From: Candidatus Omnitrophota bacterium
Lineage (GTDB): Bacteria; Omnitrophota; Gorgyraeia; Gygaellales; Profunditerraquicolaceae
Direction of reading: 5' to 3'
DNA: 64,000 bases
Assembly (NCBI GenBank): GCA_016208765.1
Contig: JACQXK010000001.1
Location: forward strand, 192,365 to 256,364
Of the stretch, positions 5,674 to 15,724 are shown one piece after another. The translations under genes and the position numbers were made by a program. The notes under the pieces were generated by a model. That model did not search any database, was not told where the DNA came from, and saw only the letters and a list, made by a program, of their open reading frames with translations. The first letter of the stretch is position 1. The number at the start of each line of letters is the position of its first letter.

Positions 5674-6672
5674 ATGAAAAATAAGATTACTGAAATACCG
5701 GTAAGGGGTGAAATTGCCATTTATCAGACTAAAGACAAGAAAGTCCAGCTGGAAGTTAAGCTGGAGCAGGAAATGGTTTGGCTTTCACAAGAGCAGATAG
5801 CGAATCTTTTCAAAACTGAACGAAGCGTTATTACTAAGCATCTCGGCAATATCTTCTGTTCCAATGAATTAGGAGAGAAAAGCAATGTGCATTTTTTGCA
5901 CATTCCCTTTTCGGATAAACCGGTAAAATTTTACAATCTTGATGTGATAATTTCAGTTGGGTACAGGGTTAATTCGTCTCGTGCTACACAGTTTCGTATC
6001 TGGGCTACAAATGTCCTGAAGCGGCATTTGATTGATGGTTATACCATTAATGAGAAACGCTTGAAACAGCAGACCCAAAAACTTGAAGCTTTACAGAAAG
6101 CAGTAAAGCTAATAAGCAGTATGAAGGATCGCAAGCAGCTTGAATATAAGGAAGCCATGGGGCTGCTTGAAGTAATCAGCGATTATAGCTACGCACTTGG
6201 GCTTTTAGATGATTATGATTATAAGCGGCTAAAGATAACCAAAACTTCAAAAGAAGAAAAGTTTATTTTAAGCTACGAATTGGCAATAGAAGCTGTAAAT
6301 AAGCTCAAAGACAGAATTGGTAGTTCAGATCTTTTTGGCACAGAGCGTGATAAATCATTTAAGAGTTCGGTATCTTCAATCTATCAAACGTTTGACAGGA
6401 AAGATTTATATCCAAGCATTGAAGAGAAGGCAGCTAATTTGCTTTATTTCATTGTTAAAAATCATTCTTTTGTTGATGGGAACAAACGAATCGCTGCTTC
6501 AATATTTTTGTGGTTCTTAGAGAATAATGGTATTCTGTATAAAGAAGACGGCTCAAAGCGCATCGCCGATAATGCATTAGTCGCTTTGACTCTGATGATT
6601 GCAGAAAGTAAGCCCAGTGAGCGAGATATTATCGTTACGCTGGTTGTGAATTTGATAAACAGGAATAATTAA
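5674..6672 (+). CDS. RhuM-family protein with a C-terminal Doc-type Fic domain.
   Basis: The N-terminal region matches the RhuM virulence-protein family (…VISVGYRVNSSRATQFRIWATNVLKRHLIDGY…). The C-terminus has HSFVDGNKRIAA, i.e. the Doc-type HxFx(D/N)(A/G)NKR motif rather than the AMPylating GNGR motif. Confidence 0.75.
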   Translation: MKNKITEIPVRGEIAIYQTKDKKVQLEVKLEQEMVWLSQEQIANLFKTERSVITKHLGNIFCSNELGEKSNVHFLHIPFSDKPVKFYNLDVIISVGYRVNSSRATQFRIWATNVLKRHLIDGYTINEKRLKQQTQKLEALQKAVKLISSMKDRKQLEYKEAMGLLEVISDYSYALGLLDDYDYKRLKITKTSKEEKFILSYELAIEAVNKLKDRIGSSDLFGTERDKSFKSSVSSIYQTFDRKDLYPSIEEKAANLLYFIVKNHSFVDGNKRIAASIFLWFLENNGILYKEDGSKRIADNALVALTLMIAESKPSERDIIVTLVVNLINRNN

Positions 6673-6821: not shown

Positions 6822-7964
6822 ATGCTGAAAACAGGTTTTTTATTGGGTGCTGGATTTTCTAAATATGGAGGAATGCCACTATCTTGTGATTTTGTTATAC
6901 AAGCCCAAAACATACTGGATAATAGGCTTGAAAGATCATATATACCTTCGCGTGAGCCTAAAAACTTGCAGAGTCTTGTTAGATTTAAAGATTTCGTTTC
7001 AGATGAGAAAGGAAGAGAGATTAACCATATTGAAGAAATCATTAAGTTGTCTGATCAATACCGGCTTACTAAAGATTGGGACAATATTGATAAAGAAGTT
7101 AGAGATGCAATTTATGAGATATTGATTGCAGCGCCTTTTATCATGTATTTAAAAGATAAAAATGAGTTATATAAAATGTTTGATATTTATTTAAGATTTT
7201 TGTTAATTGTTGCAGATTCCGAAGCTATGATTGCAACATTGAATTATGATCCTCTCCTGGAGCTTTTGTTACACACAGCAGCAATGTCAATAACACCGAA
7301 TAGCCAGCTATTTCATAAATTCGCTGAAATTGTTAGTTTTAATTATGGAATTGGAGATTTTTCATACCGACCTTTATGGGGTTCTTCTTCTAATATAGAT
7401 AGAGTAGATATATTATATTTTAAATTGCATGGAGCTACTAATTGGGAAGGTTGTGATCAACACGGATTAACAGAGGTTTGCGATCCACTAAAAACTAGGG
7501 CAATTGGGCGCTGTAGAGAGTGCAACATGCCAGCAAAACCATTTATTATTTATCCAGTTGAGGAAAAGAAATTAAATAGTCAGTTATCAGCATTGTGGGA
7601 TACCGCTTTTGGAGCATTAATGCAAGTGGAACAGATTGTTATAATTGGATGCCGATTCAATGAAACAGACAAAGATATATTTAAAAATGTTAACGAATTA
7701 ATTAGTAACAATAAAAGACTTGTAATTGTTGATCCGCAAGGCAGGCAAATTAAAGAAAGAATTGCCAAGCTAAATGAAAATGTTGTATACATCGATAATG
7801 GGAATGGCGAAGGAGCGGTATTTGAAGATATTTTCTGTGATGGTAAAACAGTAGCAAACGAAAATTTTCAAGAAATCACTAACTTAAGATTACGTAAAGA
7901 TGTGCAATATTTTCGAAACGAACAACCTTCTATGCCTTTTTTTGAAGAACCAGTCGCAACATGA
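6822..7964 (+). CDS. Standalone SIR2-like (SIR2_2/PF13289-type) domain protein; candidate NADase defence effector.
   Basis: N-terminal 'FLLGAGFS' glycine-rich motif typical of the SIR2_2 family, with a downstream 'YFKLHGATNW' histidine motif. 380 aa with no other recognisable domain. Confidence 0.65.
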   Translation: MLKTGFLLGAGFSKYGGMPLSCDFVIQAQNILDNRLERSYIPSREPKNLQSLVRFKDFVSDEKGREINHIEEIIKLSDQYRLTKDWDNIDKEVRDAIYEILIAAPFIMYLKDKNELYKMFDIYLRFLLIVADSEAMIATLNYDPLLELLLHTAAMSITPNSQLFHKFAEIVSFNYGIGDFSYRPLWGSSSNIDRVDILYFKLHGATNWEGCDQHGLTEVCDPLKTRAIGRCRECNMPAKPFIIYPVEEKKLNSQLSALWDTAFGALMQVEQIVIIGCRFNETDKDIFKNVNELISNNKRLVIVDPQGRQIKERIAKLNENVVYIDNGNGEGAVFEDIFCDGKTVANENFQEITNLRLRKDVQYFRNEQPSMPFFEEPVAT

Positions 7965-8203
7965 GCAGTTATCTTAATTGTATTGGTTAGATTGACCAGA
8001 CGGATATGTAGAGTTAGAGGTTTGTTAGTTATTAGATAATAATAAGTTATGAAAAATAAATATAGTATATACATGCGTACCTTTGGATGGCCGTTGGTTA
8101 CAGTGGCTAGGGATGGCACTGGATGTGTTAAAGAGGGTAAATGGCTTGGAGTGAAAGGGTTGCGGGAAAACAAGTCTGAAAACGAAAATCTTATTAATGT
8201 TGT

Positions 8204-8209
8204 ATAATG
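8204..8209 (+). promoter_or_regulatory. Extended -10 element (TGtTATAAT) upstream of the giant NTPase gene, followed by a (GTAAT)x3 micro-repeat.
   Basis: TG at 8201-8202 and TATAAT at 8204-8209; gtaatgtaatgtaatg lies immediately downstream. Assigned by pattern only. Confidence 0.35.
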
Positions 8210-8248
8210 TAATGTAATGTTGACCAGGGAAAATTAAACAAACAATAA

Positions 8249-11200
8249 TTGATAGCTATGCAAGAAGTAAATTGGAACAACTTTAAAGCAAAGTTTAACG
8301 GTAAAGAGCAAAAATCTTTCGAGTGGTTTTGCTATCTCTTGTTTTGTAAAGAATTCAAGAAGAACACCGGAATATCCAGGTATAAAAACCAAGCAGGGAT
8401 AGAAGCCGAGCCTATTGAACATAATGGTCAAATGATAGGGTTTCAGGTGAAATTCTATGAAACAAGGATTAGTGAGAATAAAGACGACATAAAAAAGTCT
8501 ATTGAAACGGCAAAGAGAAAGAATGGCAACCTTAACAAAATCATATTTTATATAAATCAGGAATTCTCAGAAAGTAGCAAAAAAGATAAGAAAGACCCCG
8601 CATACAAAATCGACATAGAAAATTATGCTAAGTTTCTTGGCGTGGAAATAGATTGGAGAAGCAGAAGCTTTTTTGACTCTTCATTTGTCTGTCAGGACAA
8701 TGCCGTAATAGCACAACACTTTTTTGACTTAGGCAAGAGCGCGATTGATTTCTTAAATGAGTTAACTCAGCATACCGAAGCTATCCTAGCGGCAATAAAT
8801 TCAAAAATAAACCTCAGAAATAATGAAATAAAAATAGATACGGCACAGAATATAAAAGTGCTACAAGATGTTCTGAATACTTCTCCCATGGCTATTTTAA
8901 GTGGAGAGGCAGGGGTAGGAAAAACCGCTCTCATCAAAGATTTTTATGACTCAAGCAAAGACAAGGCTCCTTTTTACATCTTTAAAGCTGCCGAATTCTG
9001 CATACCCAACATAAATCAACTTTTCGCCAATTACGGATCATTTACCCTGTCAGATTTCATGAGAGAACACCAAGATTTCCAAGAAAAATACATAGTAATC
9101 GATTCTGCTGAAAAGTTATCTGACATTGAATATAAGGAAGTTTTTCAGGAATTTTTATCCACCCTGCAAATTAACAAATGGAAAGTCATATTTACAACAA
9201 GACATAGCTACTTGGACGATTTAAGATTTCAGTTTATTGAGGTTTACCATGTCCGGTGTCAGCCAGTAAATATCGAAAATCTTACCTCGGCACAACTTGT
9301 CGAGATTTCAAAAAAATATGGTTTTGATCTGCCAAGGAATGACAGGTTGCTTGAGCTTTTGCGAACACCTTTCTATTTAAATGAATATCTACAAAATTAT
9401 GATAGTTTAGGAAACGCAATAAGTTTTTCTGATTTTAAAAATTTGTTGTGGAACAAGCAGATATCCAAAACTTCATATCAGAAGGATAACATACATATAA
9501 AACGGGAAAAATGCTTCCTGGAGATTGCTCATAAGAGGGCTGCTGAGGGCAGCTTTTTTGTAAAGGCTGATGGGTGTGATGATGAAGTTTTACGGGCTCT
9601 TGAGAACGATGAAATTATAAAATATAACTCCAATGCGGGCGGTTACTTTATTACACATGACATTTATGAAGAGTGGGCATTGGATAACATAATTGAAAGA
9701 ACGTTTTTGAATTCAAAAGATTACAGGGATTTCTTAAGGGGGATAGGAAGTTCTTTGCCAGTTCGTCGAGCTTTTCGGAATTGGCTCTCAGAAAAACTAT
9801 ATAATAATGGAAATGAAGTAAAAGCATTTATTGAATTTGCAATCAATGATGATACGATTGAGAGCTATTGGAAGGACGAAATCTACGTATCAATCTTGCT
9901 ATCCGATTACGCAGAGGTCTTTTTTGACATATTCAAAGACAAGCTTTTAGAAAATAACCAAACTCTCCTGGTGAAAATTATTTTTTTGCTGAGAATCGGT
10001 TGTAAAGAGATTGATGAAGACTTGCTTAATATATTTGGTATTCAAAAAACGGCGTGGAGCGCATTGAAAACTATCTTCACGAAACCAAAAGGCCGTGGAT
10101 GGAAATGCACCATCAATTTTATACATGAGCATAAAGGCGCATTGGGATTACAAAGAATGAATATAATCCTCCCCATGCTTGATGATTGGAATAACAAAAA
10201 TAAAGGGGGCGAAACTACAAAGCAAGCGAGCCAGATAGCGTTATATTATTATAACGAACTCACAAAACAACAATATTATCATATCTCTGACCGCAAAGAG
10301 GGGCAATTAATCAGAGTCATTTTGCAAGGCTCATCAGAAATTAAGGATGAGTTGAAAACTATCTTAGATGAAGTTATCTCTAACAAAGCGGTTGATTACA
10401 GGGATAGGTACTACGTTCTTATTAAGCCAATACTAACATCACTTACGGATTCCTTCGAGGTGGTTAAAGCTCTGCCGAATTATGTAATAAGATTAGCAGA
10501 TATTTTTTGGTTCCAAAATCCCAATGAATTAGATGAGGATTATAGATATTCAAGAAGAATGGACATGGAGGATTACTTTTGTATTTCATCAAGGCATAAC
10601 GACTTTTTACCAGCAAGTGCATTCCAAACACCTATATTCCAGCTTTTAAAGATATCTCCCCAAGAGACAACGGACTTTATTTTATCGTTTACCAACAAGA
10701 CGGTTGAATGCTATGCGAAATCTAAGCTTGATGGTGAAATAGAACAGGTAGACGTTTTTGTCGATAATAATAAAGCGATAAAGCAATATATAAGCAACAG
10801 GCTTTGGTGCATGTACCGTGGAACCCAAGTTTCTCCATACCTTCTTGAGTCTATACATATGGCTCTCGAAAAATGGCTTCTGGACGTCGCCAAATCAGCA
10901 TCAAAAGAGGTTATAGAAAGCCGGTGCCTGTATCTTATAAAAAACTCTAAATCTGCTTCAATAACCGCAGTTGTTTCAAGCGTGGTTTTAGCTCAACCGT
11001 CAAAGCTTTTCAATGTTGCAAAAATACTTTTCCAAACAAAACAATTCTTCCTTTACGACACGGCAAGGATGATGCTTGACCAATCACACAAAGGTCAATT
11101 ATTAGGGTTGAGAAATCTCTTTCCTCGTAACTACGATAATGAAATCTATGAAGATGAAAGAATAAAAGCTTGTGATGATAGCCACAGAAAATACGCATTA

Positions 11201-13009
11201 GAGCATTTAGCTCTTAATTATCAGTTATTCAGGACAGAAGAAGAAAGAGAGGATGAGGTTAAAGATAGACAAGAAATCATATGGGCCATATTCGATAAAT
11301 ATTATGCAGAGCTCCCAGACAAATCAACAGAAACGGAATCCGACAAGACATGGAAGCTATATTTGGCAAGAATGGATAGAAGAAAGATGAGTCCAGAAAT
11401 TGAGAAGACAGATGAAGGCACTTTCATTAAATTCAATCCCGAAATCGACGCCGATTTAAAAAAACATAGTGAAGATGCTCTGCAAGAAATTTCCGAGAAG
11501 ATGAAGTATACAGGTTTACGGCTATGGGCAGATAGCAGATTCAGAGGAGAAGAAGAGACCTACAAAAAATATCCTCAGTATGAAACCGAACCAAAACGTG
11601 TAATTACAGAAGCAAAGGAAATATTTGAAGGGCTAAAGACCACAAAAAGGGAAGAATTTTCCCTGTTTAACCGTTCAATACCCGCATATGCTTGCTCTGT
11701 TTTAATGCGTGATTTTTTTGGCAAACTTGATTCAGATGAAAAAGAATTCTGCAAAGAAGTAATTATTGGGTATGCAGCTATACCGTTAATGACAGAACAG
11801 TATATGTACCAGATATCCGATGGCACGGAAGCCGCAATTGCTCTTTTACCCAATCTTCTGGAGCATTTTCAAAAAGATAAGAAAGATATCAAAATGTTGT
11901 TGTTTAGATTGCTGCTCATCCCGTCCCGAGAAATATCAACATTTGTTGCAAGAGGCATTTTGCATAAGTTATGGAAAATCAGTTTTAATGATGCAAACTC
12001 TATGTTTCTAGGATATCTTTTGCTTTCACCCAAATATTATGCGCTTATCGATGAAATACGAGAAGAAAATTACAAAAGAAAAAATCACGGCGATTTAAGA
12101 ACACAGGTTTCTAAAGCATTTGAAGAAAAGTATAGAAAGGAACTTGAGAGGGTTAACAAGAACGGCATTTCTTATGATGAATTAGATGGCTTAGAAAAGA
12201 TAGATTTAGAAATTCTAAAATCGGCGTTTGAGTTATTGCCTTTGGAAACAACTGACAACGATCATAAGAAATTCTTGAGCGCAATCTTTCCCATTTTCGC
12301 AACGAAAATCTTACAGGATGATCGTGAGGACAGAATTGACTATACCCTAAGGCATAGATTCTTAGAAAAATTTGCATATTTTACCTTAAACCTCCCGAAA
12401 AAAGAAATAATGATATATTTGCGACCTTTTATCGATAATTTTCACAACTCAAGAGAAATGTCTGAATTCTTCCAAGAATTTATATTTGTAGAAGATAGGC
12501 TGTCCAAATATGACGAATTCTGGACAATATGGAATGCTTTTTATGAGAAGGTGGCAGATTTATGTAAGAGCAAGAGCAGTTATTATGCAAAAGAAGTCAT
12601 AAGTAGCTATCTCTTAGCAGGGATACCCTGGAATGAAAAAGCAAAAGAATGGCATACGCTAAAAGAACGAGAAAAGATATTCTATAAAAAGGTAGCTGAG
12701 GAAATGGGGCAGCACCCAGCGGTGTTGTATTCCATTTCCAAGGTTCTAAACGGCATCGGAAGCAATTTTATAGAAGACGGATTAACCTGGATAAGCTATA
12801 TCTTAGAAAACAACAAACAGCTAAGCTCGGAAGAATTAGAAACAAATACCATTTTTTACATAGAGACCTTTCTTCGACGATATATTCTAAATAATCGTCT
12901 ACATATTAGGAGGTCACTATTGATTAAGAAGCAACTTATCGTTGTTTTAAATTTCTTGATAGGAAGAGGTTCGATCGTAGGGTATTTATTACGAGATGAT
13001 ATTTTATAA
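8249..13009 (+). CDS. Giant STAND-like P-loop NTPase (1586 aa) with an N-terminal Mrr-like PD-(D/E)xK nuclease-fold domain and a long helical C-terminus; resembles the Avs (antiviral STAND) architecture.
   Basis: N-terminus FEWFCYLLFCKEF…GIEAEP…QMIGFQVKFYE follows the Mrr_cat pattern (FE.L…GID…I.QCK.Y). Walker A is [12 protein letters not shown] near aa 220 and Walker B is KYIVIDSAEKL near aa 280. More than 1200 aa of non-repetitive, helix-rich sequence follows. Confidence 0.6.
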   Translation: MIAMQEVNWNNFKAKFNGKEQKSFEWFCYLLFCKEFKKNTGISRYKNQAGIEAEPIEHNGQMIGFQVKFYETRISENKDDIKKSIETAKRKNGNLNKIIFYINQEFSESSKKDKKDPAYKIDIENYAKFLGVEIDWRSRSFFDSSFVCQDNAVIAQHFFDLGKSAIDFLNELTQHTEAILAAINSKINLRNNEIKIDTAQNIKVLQDVLNTSPMAILSGEAGVGKTALIKDFYDSSKDKAPFYIFKAAEFCIPNINQLFANYGSFTLSDFMREHQDFQEKYIVIDSAEKLSDIEYKEVFQEFLSTLQINKWKVIFTTRHSYLDDLRFQFIEVYHVRCQPVNIENLTSAQLVEISKKYGFDLPRNDRLLELLRTPFYLNEYLQNYDSLGNAISFSDFKNLLWNKQISKTSYQKDNIHIKREKCFLEIAHKRAAEGSFFVKADGCDDEVLRALENDEIIKYNSNAGGYFITHDIYEEWALDNIIERTFLNSKDYRDFLRGIGSSLPVRRAFRNWLSEKLYNNGNEVKAFIEFAINDDTIESYWKDEIYVSILLSDYAEVFFDIFKDKLLENNQTLLVKIIFLLRIGCKEIDEDLLNIFGIQKTAWSALKTIFTKPKGRGWKCTINFIHEHKGALGLQRMNIILPMLDDWNNKNKGGETTKQASQIALYYYNELTKQQYYHISDRKEGQLIRVILQGSSEIKDELKTILDEVISNKAVDYRDRYYVLIKPILTSLTDSFEVVKALPNYVIRLADIFWFQNPNELDEDYRYSRRMDMEDYFCISSRHNDFLPASAFQTPIFQLLKISPQETTDFILSFTNKTVECYAKSKLDGEIEQVDVFVDNNKAIKQYISNRLWCMYRGTQVSPYLLESIHMALEKWLLDVAKSASKEVIESRCLYLIKNSKSASITAVVSSVVLAQPSKLFNVAKILFQTKQFFLYDTARMMLDQSHKGQLLGLRNLFPRNYDNEIYEDERIKACDDSHRKYALEHLALNYQLFRTEEEREDEVKDRQEIIWAIFDKYYAELPDKSTETESDKTWKLYLARMDRRKMSPEIEKTDEGTFIKFNPEIDADLKKHSEDALQEISEKMKYTGLRLWADSRFRGEEETYKKYPQYETEPKRVITEAKEIFEGLKTTKREEFSLFNRSIPAYACSVLMRDFFGKLDSDEKEFCKEVIIGYAAIPLMTEQYMYQISDGTEAAIALLPNLLEHFQKDKKDIKMLLFRLLLIPSREISTFVARGILHKLWKISFNDANSMFLGYLLLSPKYYALIDEIREENYKRKNHGDLRTQVSKAFEEKYRKELERVNKNGISYDELDGLEKIDLEILKSAFELLPLETTDNDHKKFLSAIFPIFATKILQDDREDRIDYTLRHRFLEKFAYFTLNLPKKEIMIYLRPFIDNFHNSREMSEFFQEFIFVEDRLSKYDEFWTIWNAFYEKVADLCKSKSSYYAKEVISSYLLAGIPWNEKAKEWHTLKEREKIFYKKVAEEMGQHPAVLYSISKVLNGIGSNFIEDGLTWISYILENNKQLSSEELETNTIFYIETFLRRYILNNRLHIRRSLLIKKQLIVVLNFLIGRGSIVGYLLRDDIL

Positions 13010-13032
13010 GAAGGATAGCAAGAGGAGGATAT

Positions 13033-13695
13033 ATGCCGTATAAATTATCTACTGAACAAATTCGTGAATTAGTTAACCAGCCAGAAACCGGAATGGGTTA
13101 TCAGTATGTCGAAGCCTCTATGAGTAATTCTTCTATCTTGAAAGGAGTTGTGCTTAATTCAGAAGTTTTTATCCCTGAAGAAAAAATCGAAAAGATTATG
13201 GGTAAGCGATTTATAACCTACTCAGCAGTTCTTAATGAAGCAGAAAGTCCCGGATACATTAGAAAAATCAACGTCATTGGGCGAGATCGATTGCATCTCG
13301 GAGAAACAAAGTATTTTGCAAAATCTGCTGGAGTTCCTGCTTCGCAGGCCGTTATTTCTTTAACAGAAAAAAATCAAATTTTTAAAAGGTTCTCGCCTTA
13401 TAGAAATGATCATCGTATTAATGAAGATGGTAGTTTAAAATTAGGTGCATATGCCACTACAGAAGCCGATGCACGTAATGTTAGAACAGGAATAGATGCA
13501 ACAAATAGGTATGCATTACTGAGTGATGAGCCGGCAATATATGTTTTTACCATTCAACCGCCTGAAAAAACTTCTGTTCGCGTTGGAACAGTTGAACCTG
13601 CAAATGGCAAGCCTGGTGGCGGTGTTGAGGTTTTATTTGAAAACGGCTCTCCCAAAAACACTGTGACTGGACCCAACATAATTCCAGCAAATTAA
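13033..13695 (+). CDS. Hypothetical protein (220 aa) with an N-terminal 'PETGMGYQ' domain.
   Basis: Starts 24 bp after the giant NTPase stop, with GAGGAGG as RBS. Its N-terminal roughly 55 aa are paralogous to the next ORF. No recognised family. Confidence 0.6.
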   Translation: MPYKLSTEQIRELVNQPETGMGYQYVEASMSNSSILKGVVLNSEVFIPEEKIEKIMGKRFITYSAVLNEAESPGYIRKINVIGRDRLHLGETKYFAKSAGVPASQAVISLTEKNQIFKRFSPYRNDHRINEDGSLKLGAYATTEADARNVRTGIDATNRYALLSDEPAIYVFTIQPPEKTSVRVGTVEPANGKPGGGVEVLFENGSPKNTVTGPNIIPAN

Positions 13696-13914
13696 ATGAA
13701 ACTAAAATTAAATAAATACTGGACGGAGCACCTTCTTAAATACCCTGAAACAGGGATGGGGTATCAACGGGTTGATGTCATATTGAAATCTGGCCAGGTA
13801 ATCAAAAATATTGTTGTTTTGAACGCCGAAGACTTGGTGCTTTCTGACGAATATAAAGATTTAAGATTAGATGAAATTAAGGATTTACATGTTCTGATTA
13901 AAGGGAAAAGATAA
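13696..13914 (+). CDS. Hypothetical small protein (72 aa); a standalone paralog of the N-terminal 'PETGMGYQ' domain of the upstream gene.
   Basis: Starts 1 nt after the upstream stop. The alignment KYPETGMGYQRVDVILKSGQVIKNIVVLNAEDLV versus NQPETGMGYQYVEASMSNSSILKGVVLNSEVFI shows clear homology. Confidence 0.55.
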   Translation: MKLKLNKYWTEHLLKYPETGMGYQRVDVILKSGQVIKNIVVLNAEDLVLSDEYKDLRLDEIKDLHVLIKGKR

Positions 13915-14043
13915 AAATCGGCATAAGTTCTCAAGCGGAGGTGTTTATGAACGGTTTTAAAAAAGGATCTGGTTCTTTGTGATAAGGATGGCAAAGTTAT
14001 CAAAGTTTATCCATATGGCAGTGAAGAGCAGCTTAGATATGAA

Positions 14044-14361
14044 ATGGTTCTGGAAATTCTATTTGAGGCAGACAAGACAGCTCTAGAGAAACTCATAGAG
14101 AAAAGAGAGCATAAAGAACAGGTAATAGATAGTCAGATAGAAGAATGCGATAAGAAGGTTTTTCATAAATGTACCAAACGATCAGCCAAAAGATACAATA
14201 TGACCCAAACAGCAAGAATTTTAGGAGTTCATCGCGAGACATTATATTACTGGATCAAGAAAGGTTGGCTTAAGCCGAAGCGAGACTACAGGAATTATCC
14301 GGTTTTTACAGTTTTAGACATAGAAGAGCTGATAAAGTGGAAAGATACAATAAAATGTTGA
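14044..14361 (+). CDS. Small HTH DNA-binding protein (Xis/AlpA/MerR-like HTH_17) with a coiled N-terminal half.
   Basis: C-terminal MTQTARILGVHRETLYYWIKKGWLKPKR is a typical excisionase/MerR-type helix-turn-helix. No integrase gene is nearby. Confidence 0.6.
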   Translation: MVLEILFEADKTALEKLIEKREHKEQVIDSQIEECDKKVFHKCTKRSAKRYNMTQTARILGVHRETLYYWIKKGWLKPKRDYRNYPVFTVLDIEELIKWKDTIKC

Positions 14362-14500: not shown

Positions 14501-15724
14501 ATGAAACAAGAAGTTACATCAAAAAAAGTGTTCATTCGCACGCTGGGCTGTCAAATGAACGTCCGGGATTCGGAGGTAATTGGAGGGTTGCTTGCGAGAG
14601 CAGGGTATGAGATTACCGACGATGAACAGCAGGCGGATATTGTGATTTTTAATACCTGTTCTGTGCGTCAGATGGCTGAAGATAGGGTATGGAGCGCGGT
14701 GGGAAATGCTGTAAATAGAGAAAAGCATAGGGACAGTCCCCAAAAAGCGGGGACAGTCCCTATAATTGGTATTACAGGCTGTATGGCAAATAATTACCGG
14801 GAGGCAATTTTTGAGAAAGCGCCGGCTGTTGATTTTGTGGTCGGCACTGCGGATATTGGAAAGCTACCGGAAATCATAAAAGAAATCCAAAAACATAAAG
14901 GCAGCCTCAATGAAAAGAAGATTTATGAAACAGACGCAGAATTTCGCGAGGATGAAATTTATCACACTGGATTCAGGCTTGATAAAGAACATGCGTTTGT
15001 GGTAATCTCGGAGGGATGTGAGAATTTTTGTTCTTATTGTGTGGTGCCTTATGTGCGGGGAAAGTTGCGCTCGCGTGATCCTGAGGATATTTTAAAAGAA
15101 ATAAAAGCAGATGTTGATGCCGGGATTTCTAAGATTACTCTTTTGGGCCAGAATGTGAATGCGTATCATTGGGTAGATAAAAACAGGGACAGTCCCCAAA
15201 AACCGGGGACAGTCCCTGTTTTTACTTTTGATTTTGTAAAGCTCCTGACAATGGTTAATAGAATAAGCGGTTTAAAAGAGTTTACTTTTGTTACCTCACA
15301 CCCCAAGGATACATCAATAGAATTATTTAAGGCAATGGCTGAGTTGGATAAATTAAGAAAATACATGCATCTTCCGGTGCAGTCTGGTTCGGATAGGATC
15401 TTAAAAATGATGAATCGCAGGTATACCAGGGAAAATTATTTAAATTTAGCAAAGAGTTATCGTGAGATTGTCAGGGGTGGTGAGCTTACTACTGATATTA
15501 TTGTGGGTTTTCCCGGTGAGACAGAAAAAGATTTTCAGGATACCTTTGATTTGGTAAAAGAAGCGGAGTTTAATGCTGGTTTTATTTTTAAATATTCACC
15601 TCGGCCGCATACTGAGGCTTTAAAATTGCCTGATGATGTGTCAAGAGAGGAAAAAGAAAGGCGCCACGCCTTAATTTTAGAACTGCAGAAGAAAATATCA
15701 AAGAAGCTAAGAAAGAAAATATGA
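14501..15724 (+). CDS. miaB: tRNA-2-methylthio-N6-dimethylallyladenosine synthase (radical SAM methylthiotransferase). It carries two in-frame 11-aa palindromic-element insertions.
   Basis: VFIRTLGCQMN MTTase N-domain, CxxxCxxC radical-SAM cluster (CENFCSYCVVP) and a C-terminal TRAM region. Insertions 'RDSPQKAGTVP' and 'RDSPQKPGTVP' correspond to the DNA elements at 14729-14761 and 15185-15217. Confidence 0.9.
   Translation: MKQEVTSKKVFIRTLGCQMNVRDSEVIGGLLARAGYEITDDEQQADIVIFNTCSVRQMAEDRVWSAVGNAVNREKHRDSPQKAGTVPIIGITGCMANNYREAIFEKAPAVDFVVGTADIGKLPEIIKEIQKHKGSLNEKKIYETDAEFREDEIYHTGFRLDKEHAFVVISEGCENFCSYCVVPYVRGKLRSRDPEDILKEIKADVDAGISKITLLGQNVNAYHWVDKNRDSPQKPGTVPVFTFDFVKLLTMVNRISGLKEFTFVTSHPKDTSIELFKAMAELDKLRKYMHLPVQSGSDRILKMMNRRYTRENYLNLAKSYREIVRGGELTTDIIVGFPGETEKDFQDTFDLVKEAEFNAGFIFKYSPRPHTEALKLPDDVSREEKERRHALILELQKKISKKLRKKI
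14729..14761. repeat. 33-bp palindromic element AGGGACAGTCCCC-AAAAAGC-GGGGACAGTCCCT, inserted in-frame in miaB.
   Basis: Two copies of the near-palindrome GGGACAGTCCC separated by 7 nt. The same element recurs at 15185-15217 and, in reverse orientation, at 32625-32653 and 32828-32856. Confidence 0.85.
15185..15217. repeat. Second copy of the 33-bp palindromic element (AGGGACAGTCCCC-AAAAACC-GGGGACAGTCCCT), in-frame in miaB.
   Basis: Differs from the first copy by one spacer nucleotide. It is flanked by AAAAC/GTTTT, which extends the palindrome. Confidence 0.85.

Follow-up and report, generated by a model that had tools for sequence, protein, structure and literature searches.

In a 64,000-nucleotide stretch of DNA from a Candidatus Omnitrophota bacterium (the window, whose positions are used throughout), the section between 5.6 and 14.4 kb is best explained as an island of separable modules, in which two small adjoining genes would make up a toxin/neutraliser cassette of an abortive-infection-like kind. 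We regard this explanation as fairly probable. The two genes encode proteins of 220 and 72 amino acids (aa), here called P220 and P72, and are referred to as the PETGMGYQ pair after a conserved loop. A first-pass annotation of the window had noted five consecutive same-strand genes between a Fic/RhuM gene and miaB, and proposed that they form one new multi-gene system in which the small paralogs might act as adaptors. The five open reading frames (ORFs) are present at the positions it gave, and the locus is indeed a defence locus. Comparative genomics, however, separates the modules from each other, and P220 carries a predicted NAD-utilising toxin domain with an ADP-ribosyltransferase (ART) fold that the annotation had missed; therefore it would be an effector rather than an adaptor. 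The five genes and the domains of P220 are as follows.

6822-7964, plus strand: SIR2-like gene, 380 aa
8249-13009, plus strand: Avs4, 1586 aa, with Mrr-like nuclease, STAND (signal transduction ATPase with numerous domains) NTPase and C-terminal sensor
13033-13695, plus strand: P220 gene, 220 aa
13033-13287, plus strand: N-terminal small beta-barrel of P220, residues 1-85, with invariant P-E-T-G-M-G-Y-Q loop
13345-13695, plus strand: predicted C-terminal ART-fold NAD-utilising toxin domain of P220, residues ~105-220, TNT/Tne2/Tre23-like
13696-13914, plus strand: P72 gene, 72 aa, free-standing paralog of the P220 N-terminal domain
14044-14361, plus strand: helix-turn-helix (HTH) gene, 105 aa, MerR/excisionase-type

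The AlphaFold2 model of P220, built on a 55-sequence alignment, reached a mean local confidence (pLDDT) of 90.8 and a global score (pTM) of 0.86, and consists of two domains joined by a low-confidence linker. In this predicted model the C-terminal domain has the split beta-sheet of the ART-like fold. Its best structural matches are effectors of type VI secretion systems (T6SS) and Rhs effectors (Tne2, Tse6 and Rhs1-CT), and numerous ADP-ribosyltransferases and Tpt1/KptA enzymes are matched in addition. The Pfam TNT model (PF14021) gives 15.2 bits on the P220 of the window, below the cut-off of 27; such weak, sub-threshold TNT matches recur in 26 of 55 family members (best E 2.9e-4), and every other family appeared only once. 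Apart from this weak match, comparisons of both small proteins with Pfam, NCBIfam, PHROGs and PADLOC gave nothing above noise, and the literature searched contains no mention of the PETGMGYQ motif or of a TNT-type domain in phage defence, in agreement with the first-pass view that the small paralogs have no described counterpart.

Residues R119, D126, R128, T142, D146, Y160, G195 and E199 are invariant in all 83 large proteins aligned. In placements taken from the predicted model, and not from a structure-based alignment to NAD-bound toxins, R119 lies on strand 117-121, T142/T143 on strand 139-143 and E199 on strand 198-202, corresponding to beta1, beta2 and beta5 of the ART core. ART families have their catalytic triads on these same strands (PMC13285283). 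In TNT, Tne2 and Tse6 the beta5 residue is Gln, and NAD+ is bound through Arg and aromatic residues (PMC6398120). The model suggests one of two activities for the C-terminal domain, that of an NAD(P)+ glycohydrolase, as in Tne2 and TNT, or that of an ADP-ribosyltransferase, as in Tre23; the Glu at beta5 of P220 (E199) fits both, and the invariant R119, T142/T143 and E199 do not discriminate between them. The matches to Tpt1/KptA raise a further option, in which P220 is a non-toxic NAD-dependent enzyme, such as a Tpt1/KptA-like RNA 2'-phosphotransferase or a regulatory ADP-ribosyltransferase, and P72 is its RNA- or ligand-binding subunit. The structural match in that direction is much weaker, and we consider this option improbable.

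P72 aligns along its whole 72 aa with the N-terminal domain of P220, and its own AlphaFold2 model (pLDDT 90.1) shows the same topology. That the two proteins have an N-terminal domain in common, as annotated at first, is borne out by BLASTP (42% identity over 45 aa, E 3e-9). Read directly in the sequence, the TAA of P220 abuts the ATG of P72 with a gap of 0 nt, and 23 nt containing an AGGAGG Shine-Dalgarno sequence separate the stop codon of Avs4 from the start of P220; these values replace the earlier gaps of 1 and 24 nt, respectively.

From the fold, the invariant residues, the paralogy and the tight coupling, together with the mobility and the phage-borne copies described below, we infer the following scheme. 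P220 would be an NAD-consuming toxin, in which a small beta-barrel is fused to an ART-fold domain. P72 would keep P220 inactive, either by mimicking the interaction surface of the barrel or by capping barrel-mediated self-association. Infection would remove or titrate P72, by which the toxin would be released and the infection aborted, and orphan P72-type genes of phages would re-supply the inhibitor. A broader proposal, that the pair is a widespread new abortive-infection system whose barrel duplicate inhibits by domain mimicry and has been captured by phages as an anti-defence gene, is offered as a tentative one that we would not yet call probable.

The structural matches of the toxin domain could also point to bacterial competition, with P220 as a secreted NADase and P72 as the immunity protein of a polymorphic toxin-immunity pair, since the best matching T6SS and Rhs effectors have immunity genes directly downstream (Tne2-Tni2, Tse6 and Rhs1-CT-RhsI1). 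However, neither Pfam nor the model reveals a PAAR, Rhs, LXG, WXG, CpnT-like delivery or signal-peptide-like region in P220, which is only 220 aa long and has a cytoplasmic-looking barrel. The neighbours of the pair are not secretion genes, and orphan copies on phage contigs fit a conflict with phages better. Moreover, we know of no immunity protein in T6SS/Rhs effector families that is paralogous to the N-terminal domain of its own toxin. Little credence is therefore given to a role in competition, and the toxin/neutraliser cassette remains our preferred reading of the pair.

Relatives of the pair are widely distributed. A first search with P220 returned 106 relatives, nearly all of 215-255 aa and unannotated, and a scan with one genome per species found relatives in 245 genomes, from Omnitrophota, Verrucomicrobiota, Acidobacteriota, Gemmatimonadota, Proteobacteria, Bacteroidota, Planctomycetota and other phyla. 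A HMMER search of representative proteins gave 1460 matches at E<=1e-3, of which 251 reached E<=1e-30. Architecture was uniform in the top 150 of these matches; the search was aimed at other barrel architectures, but sequence weighting made its profile a full-length one, and it speaks only for the uniformity of those 150. In 80 of 85 loci, a small paralog of 65-88 aa directly follows the large gene, and the two genes overlap or lie a few nt apart. Homologs of Avs4, the SIR2-like protein or the HTH protein were found in none of the 85 (phmmer, all ORFs of 40 aa or more). We also looked for a recurrent third gene family beside the pair and found none; the largest neighbour cluster comprises 9 loci at variable positions and includes the gene at the position of the N6_N4 DNA methyltransferase of locus L001. 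The two genes on either side of the pair are mostly housekeeping genes, with some restriction-modification (R-M), DRT, PDC-S39, PDC-S42 and ZorD-like genes among them.

In Omnitrophota, the pair lies 12-36 nt behind four unrelated upstream genes.

Avs4: in the window and in locus L103
PDC-S39 (394 bits): in L001/L002
AbiGi-like gene: in L098-L102, with P220 at 92% identity
Unknown 296-aa gene in an AbiE / type I R-M / RES / nSTAND5 island: in L086

With L086, L098 and L001, which have three unrelated upstream contexts, the DNA homology of the window found with blastn starts at positions 13020-13023 and marks the left edge of the cassette.

13020-13032, plus strand: left edge of the cassette, with the Shine-Dalgarno AGGAGG only and no promoter of its own

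With homology beginning at the Shine-Dalgarno sequence, the cassette therefore moves without a promoter. A scan of the window gave no terminator-like site between Avs4 and the pair, and the pair is probably expressed by read-through from the upstream gene, here Avs4. As a cassette of two genes, the pair is autonomous and moves horizontally. Two abutting co-oriented genes, one of them with a predicted toxin fold, a patchy and mobile distribution and variable flanks are also features of toxin-antitoxin (TA) modules. One of the islands with the AbiGi-like gene contains a further uncharacterised gene (L098 3978-5747), whose 589-aa product has a proteasome-subunit-like domain and DUF6941; it shares this small island with a nucleotidyltransferase/HEPN pair and the AbiGi-like gene.

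These positions allow another explanation, according to which the pair is a promoter-less portable effector add-on at the 3' ends of defence operons, coupled to the upstream sensor and acting, for instance, as a reserve arm that depletes NAD. Wherever the upstream gene is visible in Omnitrophota (six contexts), the pair stands 12-36 nt behind a gene on the same strand, and the homology that begins at the Shine-Dalgarno sequence carries no promoter along. Yet the upstream partners are unrelated and have their own effectors, nothing suggests a common interaction surface, and outside this phylum the gene before the pair frequently lies over 100 nt off, runs on the opposite strand or has a housekeeping role. 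We judge an add-on unlikely, and rank it as the most plausible of the alternatives, before the toxin-immunity pair, the Tpt1-like enzyme and an integrated five-gene system, in this order. An autonomous toxin/neutraliser cassette is preferred over all four.

Searches of both small proteins with tblastn gave no match in isolate phage genomes and, in plasmids, one divergent relative from Rhizobium. This absence from the genomes of phage isolates and near absence from plasmids probably account for the family being undescribed. The plasmid relative (L104 3572-4288, Rhizobium leguminosarum plasmid CP050566.1) is a hypothetical protein of 238 aa in which the C-domain motifs GRYALP and AGGGVEV are present; it has neither the PETGMGYQ loop nor a small partner and belongs to a divergent branch of the toxin family, here carried by a conjugative plasmid.

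Seven contigs of the IMG/VR collection of viral sequences carry relatives, with the pair in L091, the large gene alone in L092 and only the small gene in L093-L097. The last five contigs, four of which are distinct, encode a 46-68-aa PETGMGYQ protein alone.

L093 7019-7213: orphan P72-type gene
L094 5866-6060: orphan P72-type gene
L095 10001-10141: orphan P72-type gene
L096 9953-10156: orphan P72-type gene
L097 9974-10180: orphan P72-type gene

These orphans score 56-79 bits against a hidden Markov model (HMM) of the small partner and 38-49 bits against an HMM of the N-terminal domain of the large protein. They are P72-type genes because the small-partner HMM outscores the other. Among the phage families that their neighbours match are a UvsX-like recombinase, an endonuclease, a polynucleotide kinase and PHROGs without an assigned function. 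Phages also carry orphan genes that resemble antitoxins and are directed against DarTG1, a system with an ART toxin (PMC11257639). Two of the viral orphans lie near genes of RNA-repair type, one a polynucleotide kinase and the other phrog_850, 'RNA-binding protein'; such neighbours may hint at an RNA target or may simply belong to an anti-defence gene cluster.

Several observations weigh against the toxin/neutraliser reading. The strongest concerns large genes with no recognisable partner, which occur in 5 of the 85 bacterial loci and on one viral contig.

L053, L060, L066, L076, L079 and viral L092: partnerless large P220-type genes, catalytic residues all intact

In a TA module the toxin is expected never to occur without its antitoxin, and six such genes would be surprising if P220 were lethal in the absence of P72. 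They suggest that P220 may be auto-inhibited and that P72 may be a modulator rather than an obligatory antitoxin. In addition, the likeness of the C-terminal domain to solved toxins is at the level of fold only, with 10-15% identity, and a PDB sequence-profile search with the P220 family returned only chance matches. Outside Omnitrophota, an obvious defence gene lies within two genes of the pair at about one locus in five by an uncontrolled estimate, a modest enrichment in defence islands. Both the toxicity of P220 and its neutralisation by P72 are deduced from fold and gene order, and the trigger and the anti-phage role of the pair are likewise deductions. Finally, the adjacency of Avs4 and the pair is old, which may leave some functional cross-talk between them.

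The first-pass annotation correctly saw a nuclease-STAND protein of the Avs kind in the giant gene; this protein is no new member of that kind but Avs4 itself, a known single-gene system. The protein scores 2127.5 bits against the NCBIfam equivalog NF041815 ("AVAST type 4 anti-phage nuclease Avs4"; cut-off 1500) over positions 1-1579 of 1579, 2087 bits against the PADLOC Avs4 model over profile positions 1-1570 of 1570, and 1508 bits against EcAvs4 (PDB 8DGF_A), with residues 6-1586 aligned to 3-1587. The Walker A motif GEAGVGKT and the Walker B motif YIVIDSAE can be read in its translation. Pfam matches are weak (Mrr_cat_2 with E 0.008, and weak nSTAND3/AAA_16), and the alignments to the family models span the N-terminus. 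By these sequence comparisons the 1586-aa protein is an orthologue of Avs4 and thus the already-known part of the locus; its true start may be the ATG at 8258. A preprint summarising the literature (bioRxiv 10.64898/2026.08.25.746987) counts Avs4 among the best-characterised Avs families, with the phage portal protein as the sensed molecule and an Mrr nuclease effector activated by tetramerisation, and presents EcAvs4, which recognises the portal protein and protects against phage, as a single-gene system with a solved complex. By homology, the protein of the window would recognise a phage portal protein, oligomerise through its STAND ATPase and cut DNA with its Mrr-like domain.

Four relatives of this Avs4 were compared, three from a metagenome scan (L088-L090, 80-82% identity) and a fourth, L103 (2117 bits against the PADLOC Avs4 model), from a look-up of a pair homolog. 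When all ORFs in the flanks were compared with the window by BLASTP, Avs4 was the only gene common to the window and L088-L090. The SIR2-like gene is absent upstream of Avs4 in all four (L088-L090 and L103), and the intact pair is present in one of them, L103. On the upstream side, blastn homology with L089/L090 starts at window position 8183, covering 66 nt before Avs4 and leaving the SIR2-like gene outside.

8183-8248, plus strand: conserved Avs4 upstream region, which holds the best sigma-70-like promoter match of the scan, at 8220-8249

This promoter match (TTGACC-18-AATAAT, 10/12 positions) is a match to the consensus only. On the downstream side, homology with L088 stops 6 nt past the Avs4 stop codon, and there is no pair in that locus. 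In L090 it runs about 135 nt further, into a decayed 5' end of a P220 gene (L090 8954-9088), as it does in L089. The remnant in L090 reads MPYMLSHDQIHEL, followed by a frameshift, QPETGMGY and a stop, after which comes an unrelated 564-aa gene. Standing after an intact Avs4, the remnant in L089/L090 is a fossil of cassette loss. In L103, Avs4 and the intact pair have the same 23-nt junction as in the window, with 82% DNA identity over window positions 8244-13910; the flanks are unrelated to those of the window on both sides, and a DpnII R-M system comes after. From the L103 block with its identical junction and the remnant in L090, it follows that Avs4 and the pair have long been neighbours in this Avs4 lineage. 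In some Avs4 relatives, however, the pair was lost or pseudogenised while Avs4 stayed intact, and the SIR2-like gene is unique to the window.

These comparisons bear on the proposal that SIR2, Avs4, the pair and the HTH gene act as one integrated system, with the small proteins as sensors, adaptors or regulators of Avs4. The common strand and tight spacing, the Avs4-pair block that reappears in L103 and the remnant in L090 speak for such a system. But Avs4 is intact without the pair in L088-L090, and the pair occurs without Avs4 in 85 loci and, at 92% identity, behind an AbiGi-like gene instead. The SIR2-like gene is an orphan missing from every other Avs4 locus, and EcAvs4 is described, in the preprint cited above, as a system of a single gene. 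No conserved five-gene neighbourhood was found across genomes (0 of 85 pair loci, and SIR2 in 0 of 4 other Avs4 loci), an absence that the first-pass annotation had itself named as evidence against its proposal. Comparative genomics has thus largely refuted the integrated five-gene system, which we consider very improbable, and favours an island of separable modules with the pair as a cassette of its own.

The remaining genes of the block fit such an island. The 380-aa protein had been annotated as consisting of a SIR2_2 domain; its SIR2 motifs are kept and PADLOC SIR2 models match it, but the Pfam support is weaker than that annotation implied, with 22.2 bits for SIR2_2 (cut-off 24.5) and 21.8 for AbiH (cut-off 30.9). 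The PADLOC SIR2 models cover residues 6-336 with E 5.7e-7, a match that supports distant membership among SIR2-type defence proteins. In a search of 5.8 billion proteins it matched only itself and a 248-aa fragment, P0108, with 39% identity in the search and 42% in the alignment. The fragment keeps GAGFS at 9-13, NYD at 141-143, KLHG at 201-204 and the C211/H214/C231/C234 cluster, which resembles a sirtuin zinc module. A PDB sequence search with the SIR2-like protein gave only chance matches and detected no solved structure. Because the gene has essentially no relatives, it has no conserved neighbourhood. It appears to be an orphan and divergent SIR2-type gene of a known kind, with nothing tying it to Avs4, and is probably functional; its product is probably a stand-alone NAD-dependent effector. 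A gene so isolated is either very fast-evolving or very rare as a defence gene, and yet its catalytic-type residues and its Cys/His cluster are kept.

For the HTH gene the excisionase-type annotation stands, with Pfam MerR_1 at 31.5 bits above its cut-off, HTH_17 just below and PADLOC mad1 at 7e-9. The gene directly follows the pair in L087 (77% identical) and in L086 (53% identical), and the pair and HTH gene form one blastn block corresponding to window positions 13020-14356. L087 is syntenic with the window through pair, HTH, miaB, miaA and hflX, and L086 has the pair and HTH block in an unrelated island. No HTH homologs were detected in the other 85 pair loci. The HTH gene travels with the pair in this Omnitrophota sub-clade and not with Avs4, and is outside the core cassette; its role may be regulatory, or it may be left over from past mobility. 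Assignment of the gene to miaB or to Avs4 was ruled out, as it follows the pair in the unrelated context of L086. A second, divergent HTH gene region (66% DNA identity) lies in the same island at L086 5989-6428, near AbiEii, and the HTH gene may be a recurrent island-associated element.

Two further genes border the block.

5674-6672, plus strand: RhuM + Fic/Doc gene, a separate neighbouring module and PADLOC candidate single-gene system PDC-S23
14501-15724: miaB, the right-hand border of the block

The RhuM + Fic gene matches Pfam RhuM (1.7e-22) and Fic (5.7e-12) and, at full length, PADLOC PDC-S23 (439 bits). A homolog of it (317 bits) lies at L001 3127-4104 in another Omnitrophica island, placed differently relative to the pair, and Omnitrophica islands seem to draw on a common pool of shuffled cassettes. 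The G+C content is 0.33-0.37 across the five-gene block and 0.38-0.44 in its flanks, and no tRNA genes were found at the island borders. The nearest database proteins come from Candidatus Omnitrophica/Omnitrophota metagenome-assembled genomes (MAGs), one of which encodes proteins 100% identical to the SIR2-like and 72-aa proteins. Within miaB, a 43-nt element occurs in two in-frame copies (window 14719-14761 and 15175-15217) with 88% identity between them; in each, the palindrome GGGACAGTCCC occurs twice, and both encode RDSPQK[AP]GTVP. The 64-kb window has no further copy, and not even one would be expected there by chance. The two copies stand in loops that are variable in the MiaB of L087, where the second region is 9 residues shorter, and the element may be a small palindromic element tolerated in-frame.

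Our results make this locus a textbook case of unrelated defence modules packed tightly enough to look like operons, and they show Omnitrophota defence islands shuffling promoter-less cassettes behind different defence genes. They also bring out a large family of protein pairs, unannotated in all libraries searched and present in at least 245 species-level genomes, in which a predicted TNT/Tne2-like NAD-targeting toxin fold is accompanied by a putative regulator paralogous to the N-terminal domain of the toxin. If the pair proves to be a defence or TA system, ART-fold NADases of TNT type would join SIR2, TIR and other NAD-depleting immune effectors. In that case the pair would offer a simple example of inhibition by domain mimicry, and the viral orphans would be a ready-made candidate anti-defence protein.

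EcAvs4 is one of the closest known systems. The Avs4 of the window aligns with it end to end and has the same architecture of Mrr-like nuclease, STAND NTPase and sensor, and its close relatives stand alone. Nothing architectural sets the two apart; the window copy differs in coming from an Omnitrophota MAG and in having a toxin cassette 23 nt downstream. The SIR2-like protein shares GAGxS, catalytic-type Asn/His and a Cys/His cluster with the stand-alone SIR2 proteins (AbiH; DSR1/DSR2; ThsA). It differs from AbiH in falling below the Pfam cut-offs for both AbiH and SIR2_2, and from DSR2 and ThsA in having neither a DSR2-like sensor domain nor a ThsA SLOG domain. In contrast to Thoeris and similar systems, it has no ThsB, HerA or pAgo partner, and it is essentially unique in databases.

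For the pair, the nearest toxins are the NAD(P)+ glycohydrolases Tne2 (of Tne2-Tni2), Tse6 (of Tse6-Tsi6) and TNT of M. tuberculosis, from which P220 is distinguished by having no secretion or delivery domain. Its beta5 residue is Glu whereas theirs is Gln, sequence identity to them is 10-15%, and P220 misses the Pfam TNT cut-off. Moreover, unlike in Tne2-Tni2 and Tse6-Tsi6, the N-terminal domain of P220 is a novel barrel and P72 is a paralog of this barrel, not an immunity protein of the Tni, Tsi or IFT type. Rhs1-CT (PDB 6XTD, solved with its immunity protein RhsI1), which we take to be Tre23, an ADP-ribosyltransferase toxin modifying 23S rRNA, forms the tip of a large polymorphic toxin of the Rhs type, whereas P220 is a free protein of 220 aa. 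CmdTAC, ParST and MbcTA are further ART-toxin TA systems in defence. DarTG resembles the pair in its adjacent genes with the toxin first, its NAD-dependent ART-fold toxin and its anti-phage, abortive-infection logic, and the orphan phage antitoxin-like genes against DarTG1 (PMC11257639) parallel the P72-type orphans on viral contigs. What is new in the PETGMGYQ pair is thus the family itself and its regulatory arrangement, within a known kind of NAD-targeting toxin/neutraliser module.

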